Positions 1 to 8,075 of a stretch of DNA of 9,448 bases are shown here, in pieces. Source of the stretch: Promethearchaeota archaeon (GTDB lineage Archaea; Asgardarchaeota; Odinarchaeia; Odinarchaeales; JBHLKK01); contig JBHLPL010000074.1 in the NCBI GenBank assembly GCA_048939465.1, positions 1 through 9,448 on the forward strand. Reading direction: 5' to 3'. Position numbers and translations under genes: made by a program. The notes below the pieces were generated by a model. The model saw only the letters and a program-made list of their open reading frames with translations. It did not search any database and had not been told where the DNA came from. Within the stretch, counting starts at the first letter, position 1. The number at the start of each line of letters is the position of its first letter.

Positions 1-1736
1 TCGTTACCAACCCCCCCTGTTACTTCTCTTATTTTTATTCTTTGATTAGTCAGTGCCGCTTCATAGCGATTATCCACGTCTGTCATACGTCCTTGTAAAG
101 CATAAGAGTCCCATTGATCTCCTCTCTCATGACAGTAAATCCAAGCTACTATGCAATAATCATTTGGTATTAGATCCTGATAGGCGAACGCAGTTGTATC
201 AATCACAGCAGGATCTAATTTGCCTGAATAAAAACCATCATAACTGTAATCAGTAGATGCCGTGAAGGATCCATCGATGACATTCCATCCAGTCGTATCT
301 CCGTCATCAAAATCATCGAAAACCAAGAAGGTATTTGGGCCATTACTCGTTGTAGTTGCAGTACTATTACCATAGTACATGAAGATTGTCGCGCTAGTAG
401 TGCTTAGATCATCTCTAACCTCAACCCAAAATACGCCATAGTCAGAGTCCACTTTCTCTTCGACCCAATAATCAAGTTCGGTTAGTCCATCATCATCTGT
501 AAATCTAATATCACCAAAATCTCTTCTACAATTGCTGCCGCAGTAAACATCGGCTCCATCATCCACACCAAGGCCATAATGGACGATCATCTTAATTTGA
601 TAATCTGTACCAGCACCAGGAGCAGGGTTTATGACATGACTCTTATGATGACTCCAACCTGAAAGCCAATTGTATTCTTCGTTTCCCCAACTGCCTTGAG
701 AAGGCTCAGGATTGATAAACTTGGAAACAAAGAGCCAATCTACAACAATACTCCCAGCAGAACCTGAACCCGCACCAGAACACATACCTAAAGAAACGTA
801 GACTGAGCCATCAATCGAGTATGTATCTAGTGAGTCAAAAAGAATGTCATTTGAATAGAACCTATTGCATCCTGTATCTGAGACAAGTTCCCAAGTGCTC
901 GGCTCATCGGGGTCGCCAATATACGCCCATTCTTGATTGTGCGAGGCATCCAAAACATCGTGTCTCATGCTAGAACCATCATACATAATATGAACTGAGT
1001 GCCCACCGTCATAATGGAAGTAGGGAAGAAGATCCATGTCTGCTAAGTTCCCCATTTCAAATGTCGGACCTTTTCTTGATGGGGAATATGCATATGACGT
1101 GACCAAAGCCTTTACTCTTATTGGTATTGTAAATGACGAAGTAGGACCAACAATACGGTGTTGCCACGTAGAATGATAATCCGTATCCGAAGTAACCGTC
1201 AATCTGCCACCTGATACGCTATGCGTGCCCATATCGCTGTCACGCACCGTCCAGTCAGCCGGTAGATCTGTACCCGTGAAGGTTGTGAATTCCAAGAAAG
1301 TAGCTTCCCCATTACTTGTAGTAGTTGCGCCGTTATTCCCATAGTAAACGTAAATAGTAGCATCATTTAAGCTCAAGTCATCTGCAATTTCTACCCAGAA
1401 TGTTGCGCTAATAGAATCTGTCTTCTTCTCCATCCAATAATCTAAAAGCGTTTTTCCATCATTATCTGTGAATCGAATGTCTCCGAAATCTGTTCTGCAA
1501 CTGCCATTACAGTAAACATCTTCTCCACCATCTGTACCGGGTCCGTAGTGCAAAGTTATCTTCACTTGGTAGTTTGTGCCCGCTCCGGAGGAAGAGTTAA
1601 TCACATGGCTTTTGCGATAGCTCCAGCCAACAAGCCAAGACTCCCCATCAGGAGAGGCGGACACAATGGTTGGTAAGAGTGAAAAGAAGAATAACACAAC
1701 AAAGGCCAAAACTACGACTCGCTTTCTGCTCCCCAT
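1..1736 (-). CDS. Secreted/surface protein with tandem DUF2341 modules (3'-partial, runs off left edge; 578 aa visible)
   Basis: Translated by hand from ATG at 1736 with no in-frame stop down to position 3, which explains its absence from the ORF track. N-terminus MGSRKRVVVLAFVVLFFFSLLPTIVSA is signal-peptide-like. Two copies of WLxGWSxxKSHVIN...GAGT(N/D)YQ(V/I)K...YC-x3-CRxDFGDIRFTDxDG...LDYWxE...FWVE...YYGN...TTTSNG start at 1637 and 668. The first module ends DWLFVSKFINPEPSQGSWGNEE. GGAGAG SD-like motif upstream. Confidence 0.9.
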   Translation of the reverse strand, partial: MGSRKRVVVLAFVVLFFFSLLPTIVSASPDGESWLVGWSYRKSHVINSSSGAGTNYQVKITLHYGPGTDGGEDVYCNGSCRTDFGDIRFTDNDGKTLLDYWMEKKTDSISATFWVEIADDLSLNDATIYVYYGNNGATTTSNGEATFLEFTTFTGTDLPADWTVRDSDMGTHSVSGGRLTVTSDTDYHSTWQHRIVGPTSSFTIPIRVKALVTSYAYSPSRKGPTFEMGNLADMDLLPYFHYDGGHSVHIMYDGSSMRHDVLDASHNQEWAYIGDPDEPSTWELVSDTGCNRFYSNDILFDSLDTYSIDGSVYVSLGMCSGAGSGSAGSIVVDWLFVSKFINPEPSQGSWGNEEYNWLSGWSHHKSHVINPAPGAGTDYQIKMIVHYGLGVDDGADVYCGSNCRRDFGDIRFTDDDGLTELDYWVEEKVDSDYGVFWVEVRDDLSTTSATIFMYYGNSTATTTSNGPNTFLVFDDFDDGDTTGWNVIDGSFTASTDYSYDGFYSGKLDPAVIDTTAFAYQDLIPNDYCIVAWIYCHERGDQWDSYALQGRMTDVDNRYEAALTNQRIKIREVTGGVGN

Positions 1737-1872
1737 TGCTCTCTCCCATAAAGAATAGGGTAGAACAAGCAAATAAAGATTATCTGTTCAAAATCTTGCT
1801 TTGCGATGCTCCAATAATCAGATGAACCGATTAAAGAGTTCTCTACAATAAGACAGACTCAGACCATTATGC

Positions 1873-1926: not shown

Positions 1927-2676
1927 ATGAAAAAGACCAAACCTGCGAAGCCTGAAGAGGATACCTATGGTCTGCTGATGTGGGCCTTTTACAAAGGCAA
2001 AGAGGTTATTGAAATATGGGAAAGAGACGACGGTCACATCTCTGGTTCCTCTACCGAACCAAAAATATATTTTTCAGAATATAAAGACTGGACTCAGCAC
2101 GCAAAAAAGGCCATGGAATTTGTGAAAGGAAGAGTTTTGGATGTAGCTTGCGGTGTTGGGAGACATTCTCTATACCTTCAGAGAAAGGGTTTTGATGTCC
2201 TCGGGATTGACCGCTCCCCTCTGGCTATAAAGATCTCCAGATTAAGAGGATTGAAAAAAGCCAAAGTCATGTCAATTGAAGATGTGGACTTTGAGCCAAA
2301 CTCTTTTGATACAATAATCATGATGGGAAATGGCTTCAGTCTACTTGGTAACTTCAAGAAGGCACAAAGATTGCTCAAAAGGTTTTGTAAAATTACCTCT
2401 GAGAATGGTCGAATAATGGCTGAAACTCTTGATCCGTATAAGGAAACGAGACCTGCATATCTGGAATATTTCAAGCTTAACAAGAAGAGAGGCAGAATGT
2501 ATGGACAGCTAAGAACCAGAATAAGATTTGAGAAAAACGCCGGCAAATGGTTTGATTGGGCGATGGTGTCCAAAGAAGAGATGGAAGAGATTCTCACAGG
2601 AACAGGATGGAAGGTTAAGGAATACATAGATCCGGGAAATCAGCAATACATAGCTATTCTCGAAAAGGTGTCCTAA
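1927..2676 (+). CDS. Class I SAM-dependent methyltransferase (249 aa), substrate unknown
   Basis: Motif I VLDVACGVGRHS, post-I acidic GID, motif II FDTIIMMGNG, and an N-terminal EIWERDDG segment. Confidence 0.9.
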   Translation: MKKTKPAKPEEDTYGLLMWAFYKGKEVIEIWERDDGHISGSSTEPKIYFSEYKDWTQHAKKAMEFVKGRVLDVACGVGRHSLYLQRKGFDVLGIDRSPLAIKISRLRGLKKAKVMSIEDVDFEPNSFDTIIMMGNGFSLLGNFKKAQRLLKRFCKITSENGRIMAETLDPYKETRPAYLEYFKLNKKRGRMYGQLRTRIRFEKNAGKWFDWAMVSKEEMEEILTGTGWKVKEYIDPGNQQYIAILEKVS

Positions 2677-2685
2677 AGATTAGCA

Positions 2686-2723
2686 AGATCCCTTTTTCTG
2701 TTATTTCGTCATAAAAGAGATCT
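2686..2723. terminator. Possible bidirectional terminator between convergent genes
   Basis: Imperfect inverted repeat AGATCCCTTTT...AAAAGAGATCT containing a T5 tract, 10 nt after the methyltransferase stop. The dehydrogenase stop faces it at 2811. Confidence 0.35.
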
Positions 2724-2810
2724 GGTAAGCCACATATCCATCGGAATTAACTGTATTGTAACTATCGGTACCTTTCTATATCTTTCCAGTCTAGAACTTC
2801 GCTAGGTTCA

Positions 2811-3797
2811 CTAGTACCCGATGCTTTTGTCAACAACATTGATTAGTGGGTCTTTCTTCAAAAAACGTCTAAGGTTTTCGCAAAATATGTCTGTTAATCG
2901 TTCAAGATAAAGAGGCGTGGCCCCGGCCAAGTGGGGAGTAATTATAACGTTCTTCATTTTCCAAAGCTCAGAGCTTGTAGGTAGAGGTTCCGTTTCAAAT
3001 ACGTCTAGACCAGCTCCTGCAATCCATCCCTCTTTTAATGCCTGAATTAACTTATCTTCTTGGACGACTTTTCCTCTGCTGACATTAATCAGGTAGCCTG
3101 TTTTCTTCATACTTCTAAGCTCTGCTTCACCGATCATACCTTCGGTCTCTTTAGTGAGGGGGGGAGAGAGGACAACAAAATCAGATTCAGCCAATAGCTC
3201 TTTCAGGTTTTCGAGAGGAATGATTCGGGTTTCACCTGTCTGATGGAATTGGTCCCTTTTTGTGGCAACAACTCTCGCTCCGAGAGCTTTTGCTTCTTTC
3301 GCTATCTCTGTTCCTATTCTACCGAGTCCCACAATTCCCACGGTCTTTCCGCATAATTCTTCAACTCCCTCTCCTTCCCGGATTGAAGAAAGAAAACTTC
3401 GCCTCTCCCATTTTCCTTCCATCTGATTCCTAATGAAAATGTGTAGTTTTCGGCAGAAGCAAAGAATCATTCCGAGGGTATGTTCTGCAACGGGTATAGG
3501 ATGAATACCGCTAGCGCTTGTAATGACAATATGGCTTTTGATAATCTCCGGAAATAGGAATCTTTCAACCCCTGCACCCGTAGTTTGAATCCATTTCAGT
3601 TTGTTTGCAGCTAATAACATCTCCCGCGAAAAAATACCTGCAAGCAGAATATCTGCGTCTTCGATTAACTCTAGTAGTTCCTTTTCATCCTGGCTTTTTT
3701 GGACCTTGACATTAATTGAAATATCCTCGATTCTCTTGATGTATACGCTTGGCAAATCAAAGGAGATTAGTATTTTTGGGCCGTTCATCTTCAACAA
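2811..3797 (-). CDS. D-isomer-specific 2-hydroxyacid dehydrogenase (start TTG 3797 or ATG 3788)
   Basis: Rossmann GLGRIG (3312-3329) and catalytic Arg (NVSRG), Glu (DVFETEP) and His (TPHLAG). N-terminal substrate domain LKWIQTTGAGVE...ASGIH...VAEH. Confidence 0.95.
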   Translation of the reverse strand: MLKMNGPKILISFDLPSVYIKRIEDISINVKVQKSQDEKELLELIEDADILLAGIFSREMLLAANKLKWIQTTGAGVERFLFPEIIKSHIVITSASGIHPIPVAEHTLGMILCFCRKLHIFIRNQMEGKWERRSFLSSIREGEGVEELCGKTVGIVGLGRIGTEIAKEAKALGARVVATKRDQFHQTGETRIIPLENLKELLAESDFVVLSPPLTKETEGMIGEAELRSMKKTGYLINVSRGKVVQEDKLIQALKEGWIAGAGLDVFETEPLPTSSELWKMKNVIITPHLAGATPLYLERLTDIFCENLRRFLKKDPLINVVDKSIGY

Positions 3798-4069
3798 ACC
3801 TGAAACCCAATAAGCTTCTCAACGAAGTTCATAGAGTTCTCTCTTGACACATTGGTAGACATTATAGGTATGGATATTTAATTGATCTGACTAGCAACAG
3901 CAGAAGCAACCGAGATAAGTCATCTTAAGTCCAGTTTTACGATCTTTCTAGTAATTGGATGAGAGCAATAGTATTCGTGGAGTCAAAGCTCCGGAGAGTC
4001 CTATAGCAGAGAATATTAAGGCACCGGCTGAATAGACGTCTAAAACGTCCTAAGTCCTTCAAACCCGCT

Positions 4070-4301
4070 GTAAACTACTCCCAGCTACCGCAGGGAGCTT
4101 TCCATCAGGGGTTGAGTATAGTGCACCGCACCACTCAGAATCCCATCACCTGGACGAAAGAGCCTGTTTACAGAGACTCAAGCCCTGGTAGACTGGGATA
4201 GGCCAAAACCTTGAATCTCCCGCACCAGAGCCAATTTAACAGGGCAACAGTTGGCTTTCTCAAGCCACCCATGTTTAGTTGGCATTAGAGTTCAAAAACT
4301 C
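4070..4301 (-). ncRNA. Putative omegaRNA-like structured RNA inside the mini-element (TnpB/reRNA orientation favoured; 5' boundary uncertain)
   Basis: Series of stems folded by eye: 4288-4301 (5 bp), 4252-4267 (TGGCTT-GAGA-AAGCCA, GNRA loop on minus strand), 4140-4199 (long interrupted stem with three G-U pairs that form only on the minus strand), 4113-4137, and the right-end hairpin 4078-4097. Confidence 0.55.
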
Positions 4302-4366
4302 AACGCCGGTGGGAAGTCGGCTTTCCTCCCCACCCCTGGGGATGGGGTCTCCAGCCGGAATTTAGG
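4070..4366 (-). mobile_element. Non-autonomous IS200/IS605-family mini-element (PATE/MITE-like, 297 bp, no tnpA or tnpB/iscB ORF)
   Basis: Read on the minus strand. Left end: flank TTCAT|CCTAAATTCCGGCTG-GAGA, then hairpin CCCCATCCCCAGGGGTGGGG (4347-4328). Right end: AAAG, hairpin CTCCCTGCGGTAGCTGGGAG (4097-4078), TAGT, then TTAC| at 4070. GAGA/TCAT and AAAG/TTAC follow the IS608 guide/cleavage pairing pattern (AAAG-TTAC, GAAT-TCAA). Deleting 4070-4366 restores an in-frame TAG stop for the EEP gene. No target-site duplication, as expected for this family. Confidence 0.85.
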
Positions 4367-5402
4367 ATGAAGTTTCACCGAACCATTTAGGATCTTTGCG
4401 GAACCGAGCTACCACCGGAGCATGATCTGATTCAGGAAACAGCCTGTCACCCTTGTACGCTAAGGATTCGTCTGGAAGGACTTCGTTAAAGATTTCAGTC
4501 TCATTCCAGTACGCAAAAAGGGCTTGCGAAACAATGACATGATCTATCATACATCCTTTTCCTCTGTGGAAGAGCGTATACCGTTGTTCAGCCGGGACAT
4601 TGTACTCGCACGGAATCATTACGGTCGGCTGCAGATCGGGGTTATCGGTTTCCAAAACGCTCCCAACAATCGTTTGAAAGGGCAGTGACCCGGTATCTGC
4701 ATTAAAATCACCACCAATAGCAATTACAGTATTATAAGGATCATTTTTCAGCAGTTCTTCTAGGAGAACTCGAGTTTCTAAGGCTTGTCCGACACGTTTT
4801 AGCATTGAGATGAAGAAACCTTCGGCCCATCCTTGATGCGATTTCCAAGTATATCCTTCCTTCTGTCCAGGGATATTGCTCGGCGTTTTGGATTTCAGGT
4901 GGAGATTTAAGGCGTGTAATGTTCGGTTATTGGGTAGTCTTACCTGGCAATGAAGTATCGGGCGTTCCCAACTGTACTCCCTGGCTTCATGCTCTTCCGG
5001 ATCAGCTGTAGCACTGCGCCACATGGGCGCATCAACATGAGCATGGTAGTATTGCTTACAGCTCTCGATGGGCAATTCACTCAGAGTCACCAAGTTTCGC
5101 CTTTTGAACGGTTCCTCGCTATCTTTCTTCTTTGTGTAAGTGATGTTGTAGTCCGAGTATCTTGTGTTCTGTAGGAGCTCTTCAAGAGACTCCAGATTAC
5201 TGACTTCTTGCAGGAATAAGAGATCAGCATCAATCCTTTCGATCATTGGACGAAGGATTTTAAGACGTTTAGCCCACGGTGGGTTTTCAACATTCTTATC
5301 AAGGTTCTCCAGATTGAAAGTGGCAATTCTATATTCTGGCGTGGGCCATGTTCCAATATACGGTTCAGATCCTGTATCGGTATATCCCTCTTCTCCTGAC
5401 AT
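4362..5402 (-). CDS. Endonuclease/exonuclease/phosphatase (EEP) family protein (346 aa)
   Basis: Conserved EEP motifs RIATFNLENL, LFLQEV, NLHLKSK, GGDFNAD, IDHVIVS and SDHAPV. SD AGGTGAT lies 6 nt before ATG 5402. No signal peptide evident. Confidence 0.93.
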   Translation of the reverse strand: MSGEEGYTDTGSEPYIGTWPTPEYRIATFNLENLDKNVENPPWAKRLKILRPMIERIDADLLFLQEVSNLESLEELLQNTRYSDYNITYTKKKDSEEPFKRRNLVTLSELPIESCKQYYHAHVDAPMWRSATADPEEHEAREYSWERPILHCQVRLPNNRTLHALNLHLKSKTPSNIPGQKEGYTWKSHQGWAEGFFISMLKRVGQALETRVLLEELLKNDPYNTVIAIGGDFNADTGSLPFQTIVGSVLETDNPDLQPTVMIPCEYNVPAEQRYTLFHRGKGCMIDHVIVSQALFAYWNETEIFNEVLPDESLAYKGDRLFPESDHAPVVARFRKDPKWFGETSS

Positions 5403-5408
5403 GATTTA

Positions 5409-5447
5409 ATCACCTTTCCGGCGTATATCACCCATGTCATATAAAAA
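5409..5447 (-). promoter_or_regulatory. Promoter/RBS of EEP gene: TTTTTATAT TATA box (5447-5439) and AGGTGAT SD (5415-5409)
   Basis: Canonical archaeal TATA-like element about 40 bp upstream of the ATG, and a strong SD at normal spacing. Confidence 0.55.
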
Positions 5448-5669
5448 GTACACTGCAAGAAATTGAGGCATCACTTCTAATGCTGTTTAACTCTCCACCT
5501 TCAATCATTTAAGTGATGCCAGTAGTCTTTCGGAGCACTTCCCAGAAATCCTGCAGCTATGTTTTTCGACAATTGGACAGTGACTTGTTTTTGAAAGCGT
5601 ATTCGTACTCGGGCAGTCTTCTCGGAAGTCATCCAAAATCACTGCTATTTTGAGAGCTAAGTACGATAT

Positions 5670-5801: not shown

Positions 5802-6323
5802 ATGGCGTTGCTTTCCGCTCACGAAACAATCGTCTGGGAGCTATTTCATAAAGGGAAAAGCACCAGCGAGATTGCCGACGTACATAAGAACGAGAACTGG
5901 AGCCCATCATATGTGTCGCGAGTATTGAATCGAGCGAGAAAGAAGATCGAAAAAGCCTTGCGAAATCATGCTGTAAGTCATCGACTAGACATTGAATCCG
6001 TGCTCGATTACAAGGGTCTGCTCATCGGGTACGACTATCAGACTACCTCGCAAGTATTCCTAATCTTCACTTTGGCCCTCGGTATTGTTGTATGGTATAA
6101 GCACGCAGACTGGTCTGGAAAATTATGCCCCGAATGTCCTAAGAGGGGTGAGTGCAGAGAAACGCTGGACACAATCATTAAGGAATACGATATCAAGTTG
6201 AGACCAGATGAGAAGGCCTTGCCCATGACGGAGCAGTCTGTTACGATATTTCACAAGCTCGCGGCCAAGGAGGTTCCTCGCTACAGGAGAAAAGAAGAAT
6301 CAAAGGAAGTGGTCGGGAAATGA
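5802..6323 (+). CDS. Putative transcriptional regulator: N-terminal HTH (sigma70-r4/LuxR-like) plus C-terminal H-x7-C-x2-C-x5-C domain (173 aa)
   Basis: VWELFHKGKSTSEIA...SPSYVSRVLNRARKKI has HTH character. C-terminal WYKHADWSGKLCPECPKRGEC. GAGG SD upstream. Its stop overlaps the next start (ATGA 6320-6323). Confidence 0.75.
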   Translation: MALLSAHETIVWELFHKGKSTSEIADVHKNENWSPSYVSRVLNRARKKIEKALRNHAVSHRLDIESVLDYKGLLIGYDYQTTSQVFLIFTLALGIVVWYKHADWSGKLCPECPKRGECRETLDTIIKEYDIKLRPDEKALPMTEQSVTIFHKLAAKEVPRYRRKEESKEVVGK

Positions 6324-7039
6324 AAGAAAGAAAGGAAAAGGTGATCAAACCCCCCGTGAGTAAGATATCAAGCGGGAAGGTGTTCAGACCCTCCAAGAAA
6401 TTCCGAAACAAGATCTTGTTCACAGGCATATCTCTGGCAATAGTGATTTGGACTCTTGTCAATCTAGGGTACCACGGTATTGGCTATCTCGTTGTGACAG
6501 ATGAAGGGGGCACACTGGCTGACCTGTTTCAATACTCTTGGCTGGTGAATGTGATAGTATGGGGATTCAACCTAAGCTGGCTGATTCCACTATCTATTAT
6601 CGCGCCAATGTATGTTAACCGTATAGAGTATTCGGTTATCACTGAGTCGGGAGAGGCCATGCCTGAGATCTACGTAAAGAAGGGGGTTCTGAATGTCACT
6701 CGCAAACACGTACCATTCAGAACAATTACGAACATCTCCAGTCGAGCCGGGGCGCTCGACCGCCTCTTTGGAATCGGAACGGTTGAGATACAGACTGCGG
6801 GCTTCTCAGGCGTGAAGTCAAGAGGAGGACCCGAGGAGAAGATCGAGGGAGTTGTTTTCTATGAGGAAGTTCGAGACTTTATCTTGGCCGAGCTCCGCAA
6901 GTTCCGAGCCCCCTATACAACCACAACAGAGGTGGTCCAACCTCATGAAGGAGGAGTCTTGCAGAGGGAGGATCTTGGCCCAGAGATGCTGAGCATACTT
7001 CGTGAGATCCGGGATATCTTGAGGAAACAGAAGAAGTAA
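6320..7039 (+). CDS. Membrane protein with bacterial PH (bPH_2, YdbS-like) domain (239 aa)
   Basis: Two N-terminal hydrophobic segments, then IYVKKGVLNVTRKHVPFRTITNISSRAGALDRLFGIGTVEIQTAG typical of bPH_2. Translationally coupled to the upstream regulator. Confidence 0.85.
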   Translation: MKERKEKVIKPPVSKISSGKVFRPSKKFRNKILFTGISLAIVIWTLVNLGYHGIGYLVVTDEGGTLADLFQYSWLVNVIVWGFNLSWLIPLSIIAPMYVNRIEYSVITESGEAMPEIYVKKGVLNVTRKHVPFRTITNISSRAGALDRLFGIGTVEIQTAGFSGVKSRGGPEEKIEGVVFYEEVRDFILAELRKFRAPYTTTTEVVQPHEGGVLQREDLGPEMLSILREIRDILRKQKK

Positions 7040-7062
7040 GATCTTGAGGTGTATAAGACTCT

Positions 7063-7093
7063 GGAGGTTGATTACTACCCTCCCCCCTTTTTT
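7063..7093 (+). terminator. Possible terminator after the bPH_2 gene
   Basis: GGAGG...CCTCC stem followed by CCCCTTTTTT (T6 at 7088-7093), starting about 25 nt after the stop. Confidence 0.4.
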
Positions 7094-7250
7094 CGCTGAC
7101 CTTAATTTTCATCAAGCAATTCAGAAATCAGATTTAGAGTGTTTGTTCTATTTATGGCAGACTCTCCTTCCAAATGCTATTTCTGGGACTAAAGACTTAA
7201 ATTTATCAGGATTATGGCTAATTGCAGTGTATTGAGAAGGTGTGTTCCTA

Positions 7251-8075
7251 ATGGCTCCGAATGTTGCCGTACTGGATATCGATTCTCTCGCCGAGGCACT
7301 TGACCTCATCGGTGGTTTGAATGATCTGAATACGCCTGAGACAAGAGTTATCGTAAAGGTTGGAATCTTCAACGTTGAAACAGGAATTTGTACTACTGTC
7401 GACACACTTAATTCAATCATCAATTCCTTCGATAAGGCAACAGATATTCTGGTAGCAGAATCTGACAGCTTTGCTGGACCAGGGCTTGAACGGCTGAAGA
7501 TATGGGAAGTCTGCTACAATGATAGAGTTGTTCCATTCAACCTATCAGACGACAAGGACAAGAAGACGGTCGATATTGCTGGAGAGAGTGTGCCATTATC
7601 CCATATACTATTTGAGCCGAATACTTTCGTCAGCACTCACGTACCCAGAAGATATGAGGATGCTGGAGACGAGGATCTTATGAATATGGGTTCTGTCATC
7701 AAGAATCTGCTGGGTCTGATTCCAGATACGAAGAAATTCAGATTCCATGAGCAGCTGCCTGCTGCTCTTCTAGATATGTATGAGGCAATTGGAGGAATAG
7801 ATCTTGCAGTATTGGATGGAACTCACGTCTTCCTAGGACGAAAGAAGAAGAGAGTAACCGTCTCTCCAAGACTGCTCATGGTTGGGAAGGATGCATTTGC
7901 GGTTGAAGCAGTCGGAGTCCACTTGGTTGGTCTTAATCCAACAGAGAATCCTGTACTGCAAGAAGCCAGGAACCGAGGATTGGGTGAGATTAATATTGAC
8001 AAGATAAATATTCTCGGAGATATTGAAGGGCCAAGAGATATGATTATTCAGGCATTCAGAGGAATTGGTTCCTAG
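7251..8075 (+). CDS. DUF362 domain-containing protein (274 aa; ATG 7251 preferred over GTG 7242)
   Basis: DUF362-like order of motifs VIVK, VAES, STH, KNLLGLIP, AVLDG, VGKDAFAVE, LGEINIDKI. AGGTG (7238-7242) sits 8 nt before ATG 7251, so the GTG in the track is part of the SD. Confidence 0.75.
   Translation: MAPNVAVLDIDSLAEALDLIGGLNDLNTPETRVIVKVGIFNVETGICTTVDTLNSIINSFDKATDILVAESDSFAGPGLERLKIWEVCYNDRVVPFNLSDDKDKKTVDIAGESVPLSHILFEPNTFVSTHVPRRYEDAGDEDLMNMGSVIKNLLGLIPDTKKFRFHEQLPAALLDMYEAIGGIDLAVLDGTHVFLGRKKKRVTVSPRLLMVGKDAFAVEAVGVHLVGLNPTENPVLQEARNRGLGEINIDKINILGDIEGPRDMIIQAFRGIGS

Follow-up and report, generated by a model that had tools for sequence, protein, structure and literature searches.

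The omegaRNA (reRNA) of ISDra2 TnpB from Deinococcus radiodurans derives from the 3′ end of tnpB together with the right end of the element. It folds into a multi-stem scaffold in which a pseudoknot involves the 3′ part next to the guide; the guide is the flank past the right end, and the transposon-adjacent motif (TAM) is TTGAT. In IS608 from Helicobacter pylori, AAAG pairs with TTAC at the left end and GAAT pairs with TCAA at the right end. The window studied here, a 9,448-nucleotide stretch of DNA from a Promethearchaeota archaeon, contains at positions 4070–4366 a 297-bp segment without genes that, judging from its sequence and its relatives, is very probably non-autonomous and derived by internal deletion from a tnpB-only IS200/IS605 element; elements of this type are known as palindrome-associated transposable elements (PATEs) or miniature inverted-repeat transposable elements (MITEs). 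The PATEs, which belong to the IS200/IS605 family, take their definition from Haloquadratum walsbyi, an archaeon (Dyall-Smith et al. 2011, PMC3119063). Like them, the element is short, protein-less and multi-copy, carries subterminal imperfect palindromes, shows neither inverted terminal repeats nor a target duplication, and would depend on a TnpA encoded elsewhere; unlike them, it occurs in another phylum, and a tnpB parent of the same clade was found only in other families of that phylum. PATE-like elements of Geobacillus stearothermophilus 'often encode omegaRNAs', with TnpB needed in trans, and one TnpA serves several families in that organism (Meers et al. 2023, bioRxiv 10.1101/2023.03.14.532601). 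There, the matching TnpB and IscB families are in the same genome and were tested, whereas here no same-clade TnpB was found. The passage of PMC10691335 that summarises the first OMEGA study reports stand-alone, mobilised omegaRNA loci, devoid of effector or transposase, that work in trans with compatible effectors; the genomes described in that passage also hold effector loci of the same system, whereas none of the matching TnpB clade was found in the present one. The element type is already published, archaea included, and the case described below is a further example.

The source genome (G000) is an assembly of 152 contigs with a completeness of 91% and a reported contamination of 3.8%. It was compared with two congeneric genomes (G001 and G002; the three assemblies are 78–91% complete) and with genomes from other families of the same phylum (G037, G007 and G027). 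RNA coordinates, helix numbers and the H1 loop and tail sequences are all given for the minus strand, which is the RNA sense. The features that define the insertion are as follows.

4070–4366, minus strand: whole mini-element, 297 bp, comprising the left end, a promoter-like region, a tnpB start remnant, a predicted omegaRNA scaffold and the right end
4367–4371, minus strand: target or transposon-adjacent motif TTCAT, flanking DNA immediately 5′ of the left end, within the last codons of the host gene (ACT TCA T/AG, the slash marking the insertion point)
4050–4069, minus strand: predicted guide AGCGGGTTTGAAGGACTTAG, flank 3′ of the right end, ancestral 3′ untranslated region (UTR) of the host gene
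4362–5402, minus strand: host gene of the EEP (endonuclease/exonuclease/phosphatase) family, Pfam PF03372

Excising 4070–4366 yielded a gapless colinear alignment, through both flanks, with the element-free locus of the congener G002 (contig C11, locus L032), where the joint reads GGTGAAACTTCAT/AGCGGGTTTGAAGGACTTAGGACG in the window and GGTGCAACT–––TAGTGGGTACGGAGGACCTAGAACG in the congener (TTCAT/AGCGGG versus ACT–––TAGTGGG). The same excision restored colinearity with contig C145 of the same bin, which is element-free and 88% identical; position 4367 abuts C145:1849, position 4069 abuts C145:1850, and the joint reads ACTTCTT AGCAG. Because removal of the segment restores colinearity with both loci, the boundaries that the first-pass annotation had proposed from the sequence are exact. 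Target-site duplication is absent in both comparisons, and the element is placed 3′ of TTCAT. No terminal inverted repeats were seen by eye, the two end hairpins not being inverted copies of each other, and no inverted-repeat search was made. The element was found at the same locus in a contig from a different study (X5 record 26, spanning 3351–4406) and is therefore not an assembly artefact. In the contigs of four DNA runs, the clean empty-site joint 4069/4367 was not seen, and one contig has an arrangement like that of C145 and G002 (joint 2792 to 4369); a joint from 4058 to 4377 also occurs. The G+C content inside the segment reaches about 0.53, as opposed to about 0.42 around it, and no open reading frame (ORF) of 50 amino acids or more lies inside, in keeping with the earlier description of an interior without a long ORF. 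Contig C145 (2,973 bp, corresponding to 2620–5517 of the window) is a second version of the locus within the bin and belongs either to a co-binned related strain or to a paralogous segment; where the window has its TAM it reads TTCTT, and 4 of the 16 bases compared at the guide position are different.

The insertion lies within the stop codon of the EEP gene (TCA T/AG). The gene now ends ACT TCA TCC TAA, the new stop being supplied by the first bases of the element (CC TAA), and the protein is one serine longer. The EEP orthologs of the two congeners match the window only from 4369/4370 onward, and the ortholog proteins end in GET (G002), GETS (G001) and GTS (C145), each followed by the stop; these endings, together with the lack of a duplication, indicate that the insertion split the stop codon. 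The locus is a small illustration that such elements can land in a stop codon without harm to the host gene. An element that immediately follows the EEP stop, runs in the same direction as the gene and folds strongly could also be a structured host RNA, or a 3′ UTR or terminator of that gene, that is not mobile at all. However, it is absent at the orthologous locus in G001, G002 and C145, with both flanks conserved in G002 and C145; eight other, unrelated loci carry it; and it is homologous to the ends of tnpB transposons. We regard an immobile host RNA as exceedingly improbable. The adjacent 346-amino-acid ORF was considered as a candidate TnpB and rejected, since Pfam places it in the EEP family.

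Nine copies of the element, that of the window included, are present at unrelated loci in the source genome. Four have both ends (C144, C10, C62 and C69, the last with an internal deletion) and five lack the left end (C138, C139, C64, C146 and C77); the identity of the other copies to the window copy is 69–84%. More copies, with unrelated flanks, are present in the congener G002. On the right, all copies close with a hairpin and then (A)GTAGTTTAC, and similarity does not extend past this terminus. In the left-ended copies, the distance from TCAT, CTAT or CCAT to CTGGAG is exactly 12 nt, or 11 nt in C69. The first-pass annotation had anticipated further copies with differing flanks, every one of them TCAT, and a TAM of TTCAT. 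The differing flanks are borne out, but the uniform TCAT is not: it precedes three of the five left-ended family copies (C144, C62 and C69), with CTAT in C10 and CCAT in G002:C152. TCAT also flanks three tnpB-bearing relatives (L065, which is the intact tnpB element in G037, L085 and L066), and these flanks back the predicted TAM.

None of the nine copies adjoins tnpB, tnpA or another nuclease gene. Hidden nuclease genes before the left-truncated copies were considered and rejected, the neighbours being DUF58, peptidase M20, pyruvate:ferredoxin oxidoreductase subunits and similar; a 416-amino-acid ORF beside the C138 copy had no Pfam match. Exact-pattern scans of metagenome and genome contigs with a two-block scaffold motif gave no matches. 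Comparison of the G002:C152 copy with G000:C138 gave no clean empty site, the region being rearranged. A left-truncated copy lies beside the same gene in G000:C138:457–700 and G002:C120:1351–1525 (locus L028; 86% identity), with the neighbouring gene inverted relative to the element in one species; an old orthologous copy that underwent a local inversion could account for this pair.

To trace the origin of the element, a covariance model (R1) was built from eight family members over their right 166 nt and run against a sample of 151 genomes of the phylum. R1 scores 182 bits at the window copy, the best of the family, and has matches in other families of the phylum: five in G037 (42–71 bits), one in G007 (69 bits) and one in G027 (50 bits), with E values of 1e-16 to 1e-8. 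The four checked matches from these genomes, and four weaker ones, overlap the last codons of a 383–454-amino-acid ORF on the same strand, and Pfam assigns each of the eight ORFs tested to TnpB (PF07282, in most cases with PF01385). Moreover, when the interior of the C10 copy is translated, it matches the C-terminal 60 amino acids of the G007 TnpB (39% identity, E 2e-4), and the translated interior of the G002:C152 copy matches this C terminus too. The tnpB elements of G037 and G007 are about 1.35 kb long, and both of their ends are homologous to those of the mini-element; their common left end consists of the flank (T)TCAT, about 12 nt, GGAGA, a hairpin and the box GTTGAGTT(C/T)TTAA(G/A). Kept from such a parent are about 100 nt of the left end, a short unconserved stretch and the last roughly 165–200 nt, which in the tnpB-bearing relatives are the tnpB 3′ end plus the right end. 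Because the R1 matches fall on these parts, and on the tnpB strand, the interior very probably corresponds to a TnpB omegaRNA scaffold.

With several copies in different surroundings, an empty site free of duplication and tnpB-bearing homologs, the annotation of the segment as a mini IS200/IS605 element is supported, as is that of its interior as a TnpB-type omegaRNA on the minus strand. Its identity as a PATE with an omegaRNA scaffold can be stated with high confidence. Longer relatives with the same ends and a tnpB gene had also been predicted; they were found in other families of the phylum, but not in this genome or its two congeners.

The two ends contain the following features, all on the minus strand.

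4318–4366, minus strand: left end, with a 12-nt leader CCTAAATTCCGG (4366–4355), GAGA and an imperfect hairpin with outer stem CGGCU/AGCCG
4351–4348, minus strand: GAGA, directly 5′ of the left hairpin
4347–4328, minus strand: left hairpin, imperfect and G+C-rich, CCCCATCC-CCAG-GGGTGGGG
4288–4304, minus strand: conserved A/T-rich box GTTGAGTTTTTGAACTC, with TATA-like TTTTTGAA at 4298–4291
4272–4270, minus strand: ATG of the tnpB remnant, about 25 nt after the A/T-rich box
4266–4253, minus strand: GAGA-tetraloop hairpin in the short unconserved stretch
4101–4098, minus strand: AAAG, directly 5′ of the right hairpin
4098–4077, minus strand: right-end hairpin
4073–4070, minus strand: terminal TTAC of the right terminus AGTAGTTTAC

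The TTCAT flank, GAGA, AAAG, both hairpins and the terminal TTAC had all been named in the first-pass annotation, and each is present on the minus strand as described there. GAGA/TCAT and AAAG/TTAC are consistent with the guide–cleavage rule of IS608, but the tetranucleotides GAGA and AAAG do not vary and so lend the rule no support by covariation. As in IS608, a tetranucleotide lies directly 5′ of each hairpin foot and AAAG/TTAC is the same pair, but its place differs: the right end here, the left end in IS608. Copies and relatives preserve both end hairpins, with compensatory changes. Within the source genome only the end architecture is shared: the left hairpin resembles that of the genome's own tnpA–tnpB element (on contig C105), and the right end, with its AAAG, hairpin and AGTAGTTTAC, is built like those of the resident tnpB elements. 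The A/T-rich box is conserved in the family copies that have a left end and, in the form GTTGAGTTCTTAAG, in the G037 elements. In the intact G037 element L065 the distance from the box to the tnpB ATG is about 45 nt, and that to the likely transcript start about 25 nt; the box is probably a TATA-like promoter element.

The part of the element that is homologous to the omegaRNA scaffold contains five helices.

4070–4232, minus strand: omegaRNA scaffold homolog with right end, R1 score 182 bits
4221–4193, minus strand: H0, GGGA/UCCC
4179–4160, minus strand: H1 hairpin, loop GUAAAC at 4171–4166
4156–4144, minus strand: H2
4136–4114, minus strand: H3
4098–4077, minus strand: H4, the right-end hairpin
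4075–4070, minus strand: 3′ tail GUUUAC

The predicted fold beats that of shuffled sequences on both strands (z −3.8 for minus, −3.7 for plus), and because the scores are similar they do not by themselves favour either strand. The helices were checked in an unguided MAFFT alignment of 14 sequences (the eight family members and six tnpB-linked relatives), with the pairing partners slid as a control. H0–H4 are 91–98% paired, as against mostly 20–50% with slid partners; exceptions are one H3 shift (76%) and H0, which reaches 89% when slid, so that the control does not discriminate H0. Compensatory changes, which the annotation had expected a covariance model to reveal, occur in H0, H1 and H4, although the helix sequences are related to one another. 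Double changes are seen in H0, in H1 (GAGUCU/AGGCUC versus CAGUCC/GGACUG) and in H4 (CUCCCUGC/GCUGGGAG versus CACCUAUU/AAUAGGUG, with CUUUC/GAAAG in C64). Pairing on the complementary strand is lower, at 64–91%, with the lowest value for H2 (64%). The loss of pairs fits a functional single strand that is the minus one, either as RNA or as top-strand DNA. The stems and the GAGA tetraloop of the earlier description are present; the tetraloop hairpin is specific to the window copy and is not conserved in the others. A long-range closing helix, UCUACCAGGG with CCCCUGAUGGA, was predicted within the family and dropped because it is not kept in the G037 and G007 relatives.

The H1 loop GUAAAC, nearly invariant, is the exact complement of the tail GUUUAC, and 96% of the cells pair; the only compensatory change is that in copy C139 (GUAGGC versus GUCUAC). 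The loop–tail pairing is a plausible counterpart of the omegaRNA pseudoknot, but a weakly grounded one, because the tail is also the TnpA cleavage site. Compared with ISDra2, the TAM is TTCAT rather than TTGAT and the pseudoknot is only predicted; we claim no sequence similarity between the two.

Generic hairpins, and a fold on the plus strand nearly as strong as that on the minus strand, might also belong to a guide-RNA module of IscB or IsrB, which would be a plus-strand RNA upstream of the gene, or to a MITE of a DDE transposon. The evidence on strand and ends speaks against both: the eight ORFs beside R1 matches are all TnpB and lie on the strand of the minus-sense RNA, which favours the proposed TnpB orientation over that of IscB; the helices lose pairs on the complementary strand; the empty sites show no target-site duplication, and the end hairpins, compared by eye, are not inverted copies of each other; and the Rfam HEARO and related models do not match. 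An IscB, IsrB or DDE origin has next to no probability.

Because the right boundary is fixed by the empty sites, the position of the guide is fixed as well, and positions 4069–4050 are the predicted guide, beginning AGCGGGTTTGAAGGAC, as the first-pass annotation had it. In the proposed mechanism, the element would move by single-strand 'peel and paste' transposition catalysed by a Y1 TnpA in trans. The retained TATA-like box, or else read-through of the co-directional EEP gene, would give rise to an RNA of about 220 nt that would run across the right end into the flank, its last 16–20 nt forming the guide. A compatible TnpB, if any, would then be directed to TTCAT followed by AGCGGGTTTGAAGGAC..., that is, to the element-free form of the site. 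Such targeting would help the element to be retained, in line with the homing model put forward by Meers et al. The only match to the window guide in the genome within two mismatches is its own site. Likewise, a search of the genome for second targets of the nine guides gave, at up to two mismatches, only self-matches in which the element end is present, and in no case was the flank of the TCAT type; therefore nothing suggests a repertoire aimed at other DNA.

The source genome encodes one tnpA, which is intact (C105:1150–1557; Y1_Tnp, E 7.5e-37), and three tnpB genes: one in the C105 tnpA–tnpB element (C105:1557–2840), one on C2 (C2:26093–27244) and one split over C70 and C55. The split gene occupies the contig ends C70:1–1000 and C55:5650–6043 (both minus), which share the peptide FLEYKATLKGIRVVYVKPHYTSKEC and join to about 385 amino acids. 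The resident tnpB right ends consist of GGAAG, a hairpin and then GGAGTAGTT(C/T)AC. That of C70 and C55 is the nearest resident type, sharing the GUAAAC hairpin, the terminal hairpin and the GUUUAC tail and little else. A blastx comparison of the copies with the resident TnpBs gave only a chance-level match of 8 amino acids (GLSLCKQA versus GLGFCKQA).

Two further groups of ends were observed in this genome. A second, more numerous gene-less family of about 220 bp ends in ...AAGCTCCTTCTGCAAGGGAGGAGTAGTTTAC (C25:178–343, C66:3252–3414, C38:1716–1878, C59:1616–1781, C118:3635–3796 and others). Its scaffold closely matches the right end of the C70/C55 tnpB, and a resident TnpB thus exists for that family. 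In addition, the left end of the tnpA–tnpB element (C105:1005–1045) and the sites of a family 'D' (C5:3072, C23:1999 and C73:16377) have a hairpin and, after it, AGTAGTT(T/C)AC, a motif with which right ends also terminate. The flank of the C105-type left end is TTTAC or TTTAT and therefore points to a TTAC-like target, unlike the TCAT of the family studied here.

Several observations weigh against reading the element as a PATE that carries a TnpB omegaRNA module. TnpB of the G037/G007 clade was not found in G000, G001 or G002 by profile-guided and tblastn searches of these assemblies (78–91% complete); the resident TnpBs are 21–25% identical to that clade where they can be aligned, one pair not aligning at all, and the resident tnpB right-end regions score only 14–20 bits with R1. 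The comparison with Rfam that had been suggested for the interior yielded no family: at the gathering score nothing in the whole window matched, the HEARO (IscB omegaRNA) and IS605-orfB motif models included, and at E values up to 10 the region 3850–4500 gave only chance-level matches (E above 1). The GAGA/TCAT and AAAG/TTAC pairs show no covariation, and the invariance of GUUUAC could reflect the needs of TnpA cleavage and not an RNA pseudoknot. The scaffold region is also coding in the tnpB-bearing relatives, where conservation may be partly at the protein level. Finally, the family gives the impression of being old, since the copies are 16–31% diverged from the window copy and the left end is missing from five.

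The same facts bear on what the element does at present. It may be an inert relic, a PATE whose RNA module lost its partner when the cognate tnpB lineage went from the genus, the scaffold being kept only because the copies are young in relation to neutral decay or descend from once-active masters; this account differs from that of a PATE with a usable guide-RNA module only in present-day function. The failure to find a same-clade TnpB in the three congeneric genomes, the divergence of the copies, with five of nine left-truncated and one internally deleted, and the want of a second genomic guide target all favour it. However, the window copy is the best-scoring (182 bits) and is structurally intact, and three related versions of the locus (G001, G002 and C145) lack it, so it was probably inserted after the lineages split, which implies fairly recent mobility. 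Furthermore, the assemblies are incomplete and insertion-sequence copies break contigs, as at C70/C55; the cognate tnpB could therefore be unassembled. We consider the case for an inert relic to be evenly balanced. The likelier state at present, with about an even chance, is that of a selfish or neutral passenger with its RNA module intact but unused; loading of its RNA by a TnpB in this organism today is possible but doubtful.

The scaffold might also have been domesticated as a TnpB-independent small RNA, or as a cis element, with a regulatory role in the host. Copies without a left end retain the scaffold structure, the C138 and G002:C120 copies may be orthologous, and no same-clade TnpB was found. 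Nevertheless, no locus is conserved across all congeners, the flanks are unrelated, and the copies decay (deletions, and broken pairs in C64, C69 and C146); such a role is very unlikely. It is unlikely, too, though less so, that the scaffold has been kept in a genus without the matching TnpB clade through use by a very different resident TnpB or through a nuclease-independent role. If this were true, guide RNAs would be shared across clades, or a transposon RNA would have been domesticated, in an Asgard archaeon.

Taken as a PATE with an omegaRNA scaffold, the element is a well-delimited, Asgard-type example of a gene-less IS200/IS605 element with a TnpB guide-RNA scaffold. Its exact boundaries, its empty site and its predictable TAM (TTCAT) and guide make it a ready substrate for trans assays of archaeal TnpA and TnpB. 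That its own TnpB clade was not found in the genus raises the question of promiscuity in omegaRNA loading, the sole point that goes beyond routine annotation; the current understanding of IS200/IS605 and TnpB systems is unchanged.

The other gene flanking the element encodes a 2-hydroxyacid dehydrogenase (2811–3797, minus). It is only in the window contig that this gene stands between the methyltransferase and EEP genes (region 2713–3962); at this position G002:C11 (612–990) and C145 (1955–2615) have a different segment of about 400–660 bp, and the G001 ortholog of the dehydrogenase sits on another contig. Since the dehydrogenase is present at the locus only here, a second, independent rearrangement adjoins the element. 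Several ORFs of 105–173 amino acids in the window had no Pfam match, and a scan of the window for tRNA and tmRNA genes found none. The remaining genes of the window, in the regions 3–1772 (minus) and 5802–8075 (plus), include one for a DUF2341 protein of more than 590 amino acids, which lies in the 3–1772 region and runs off the window, as well as those for a protein with a bPH_2 (bacterial PH) domain and a DUF362 protein. Bases 2–5 of the left end always hold a stop-codon triplet although the sequence varies (TAA, TAA, TGA, TGA, TAG and TAG in the set comprising the window copy at 4366–4360, C10, C62, C69, G002:C152 and L085); this pattern may be due to chance, as only the window copy sits in a stop codon.

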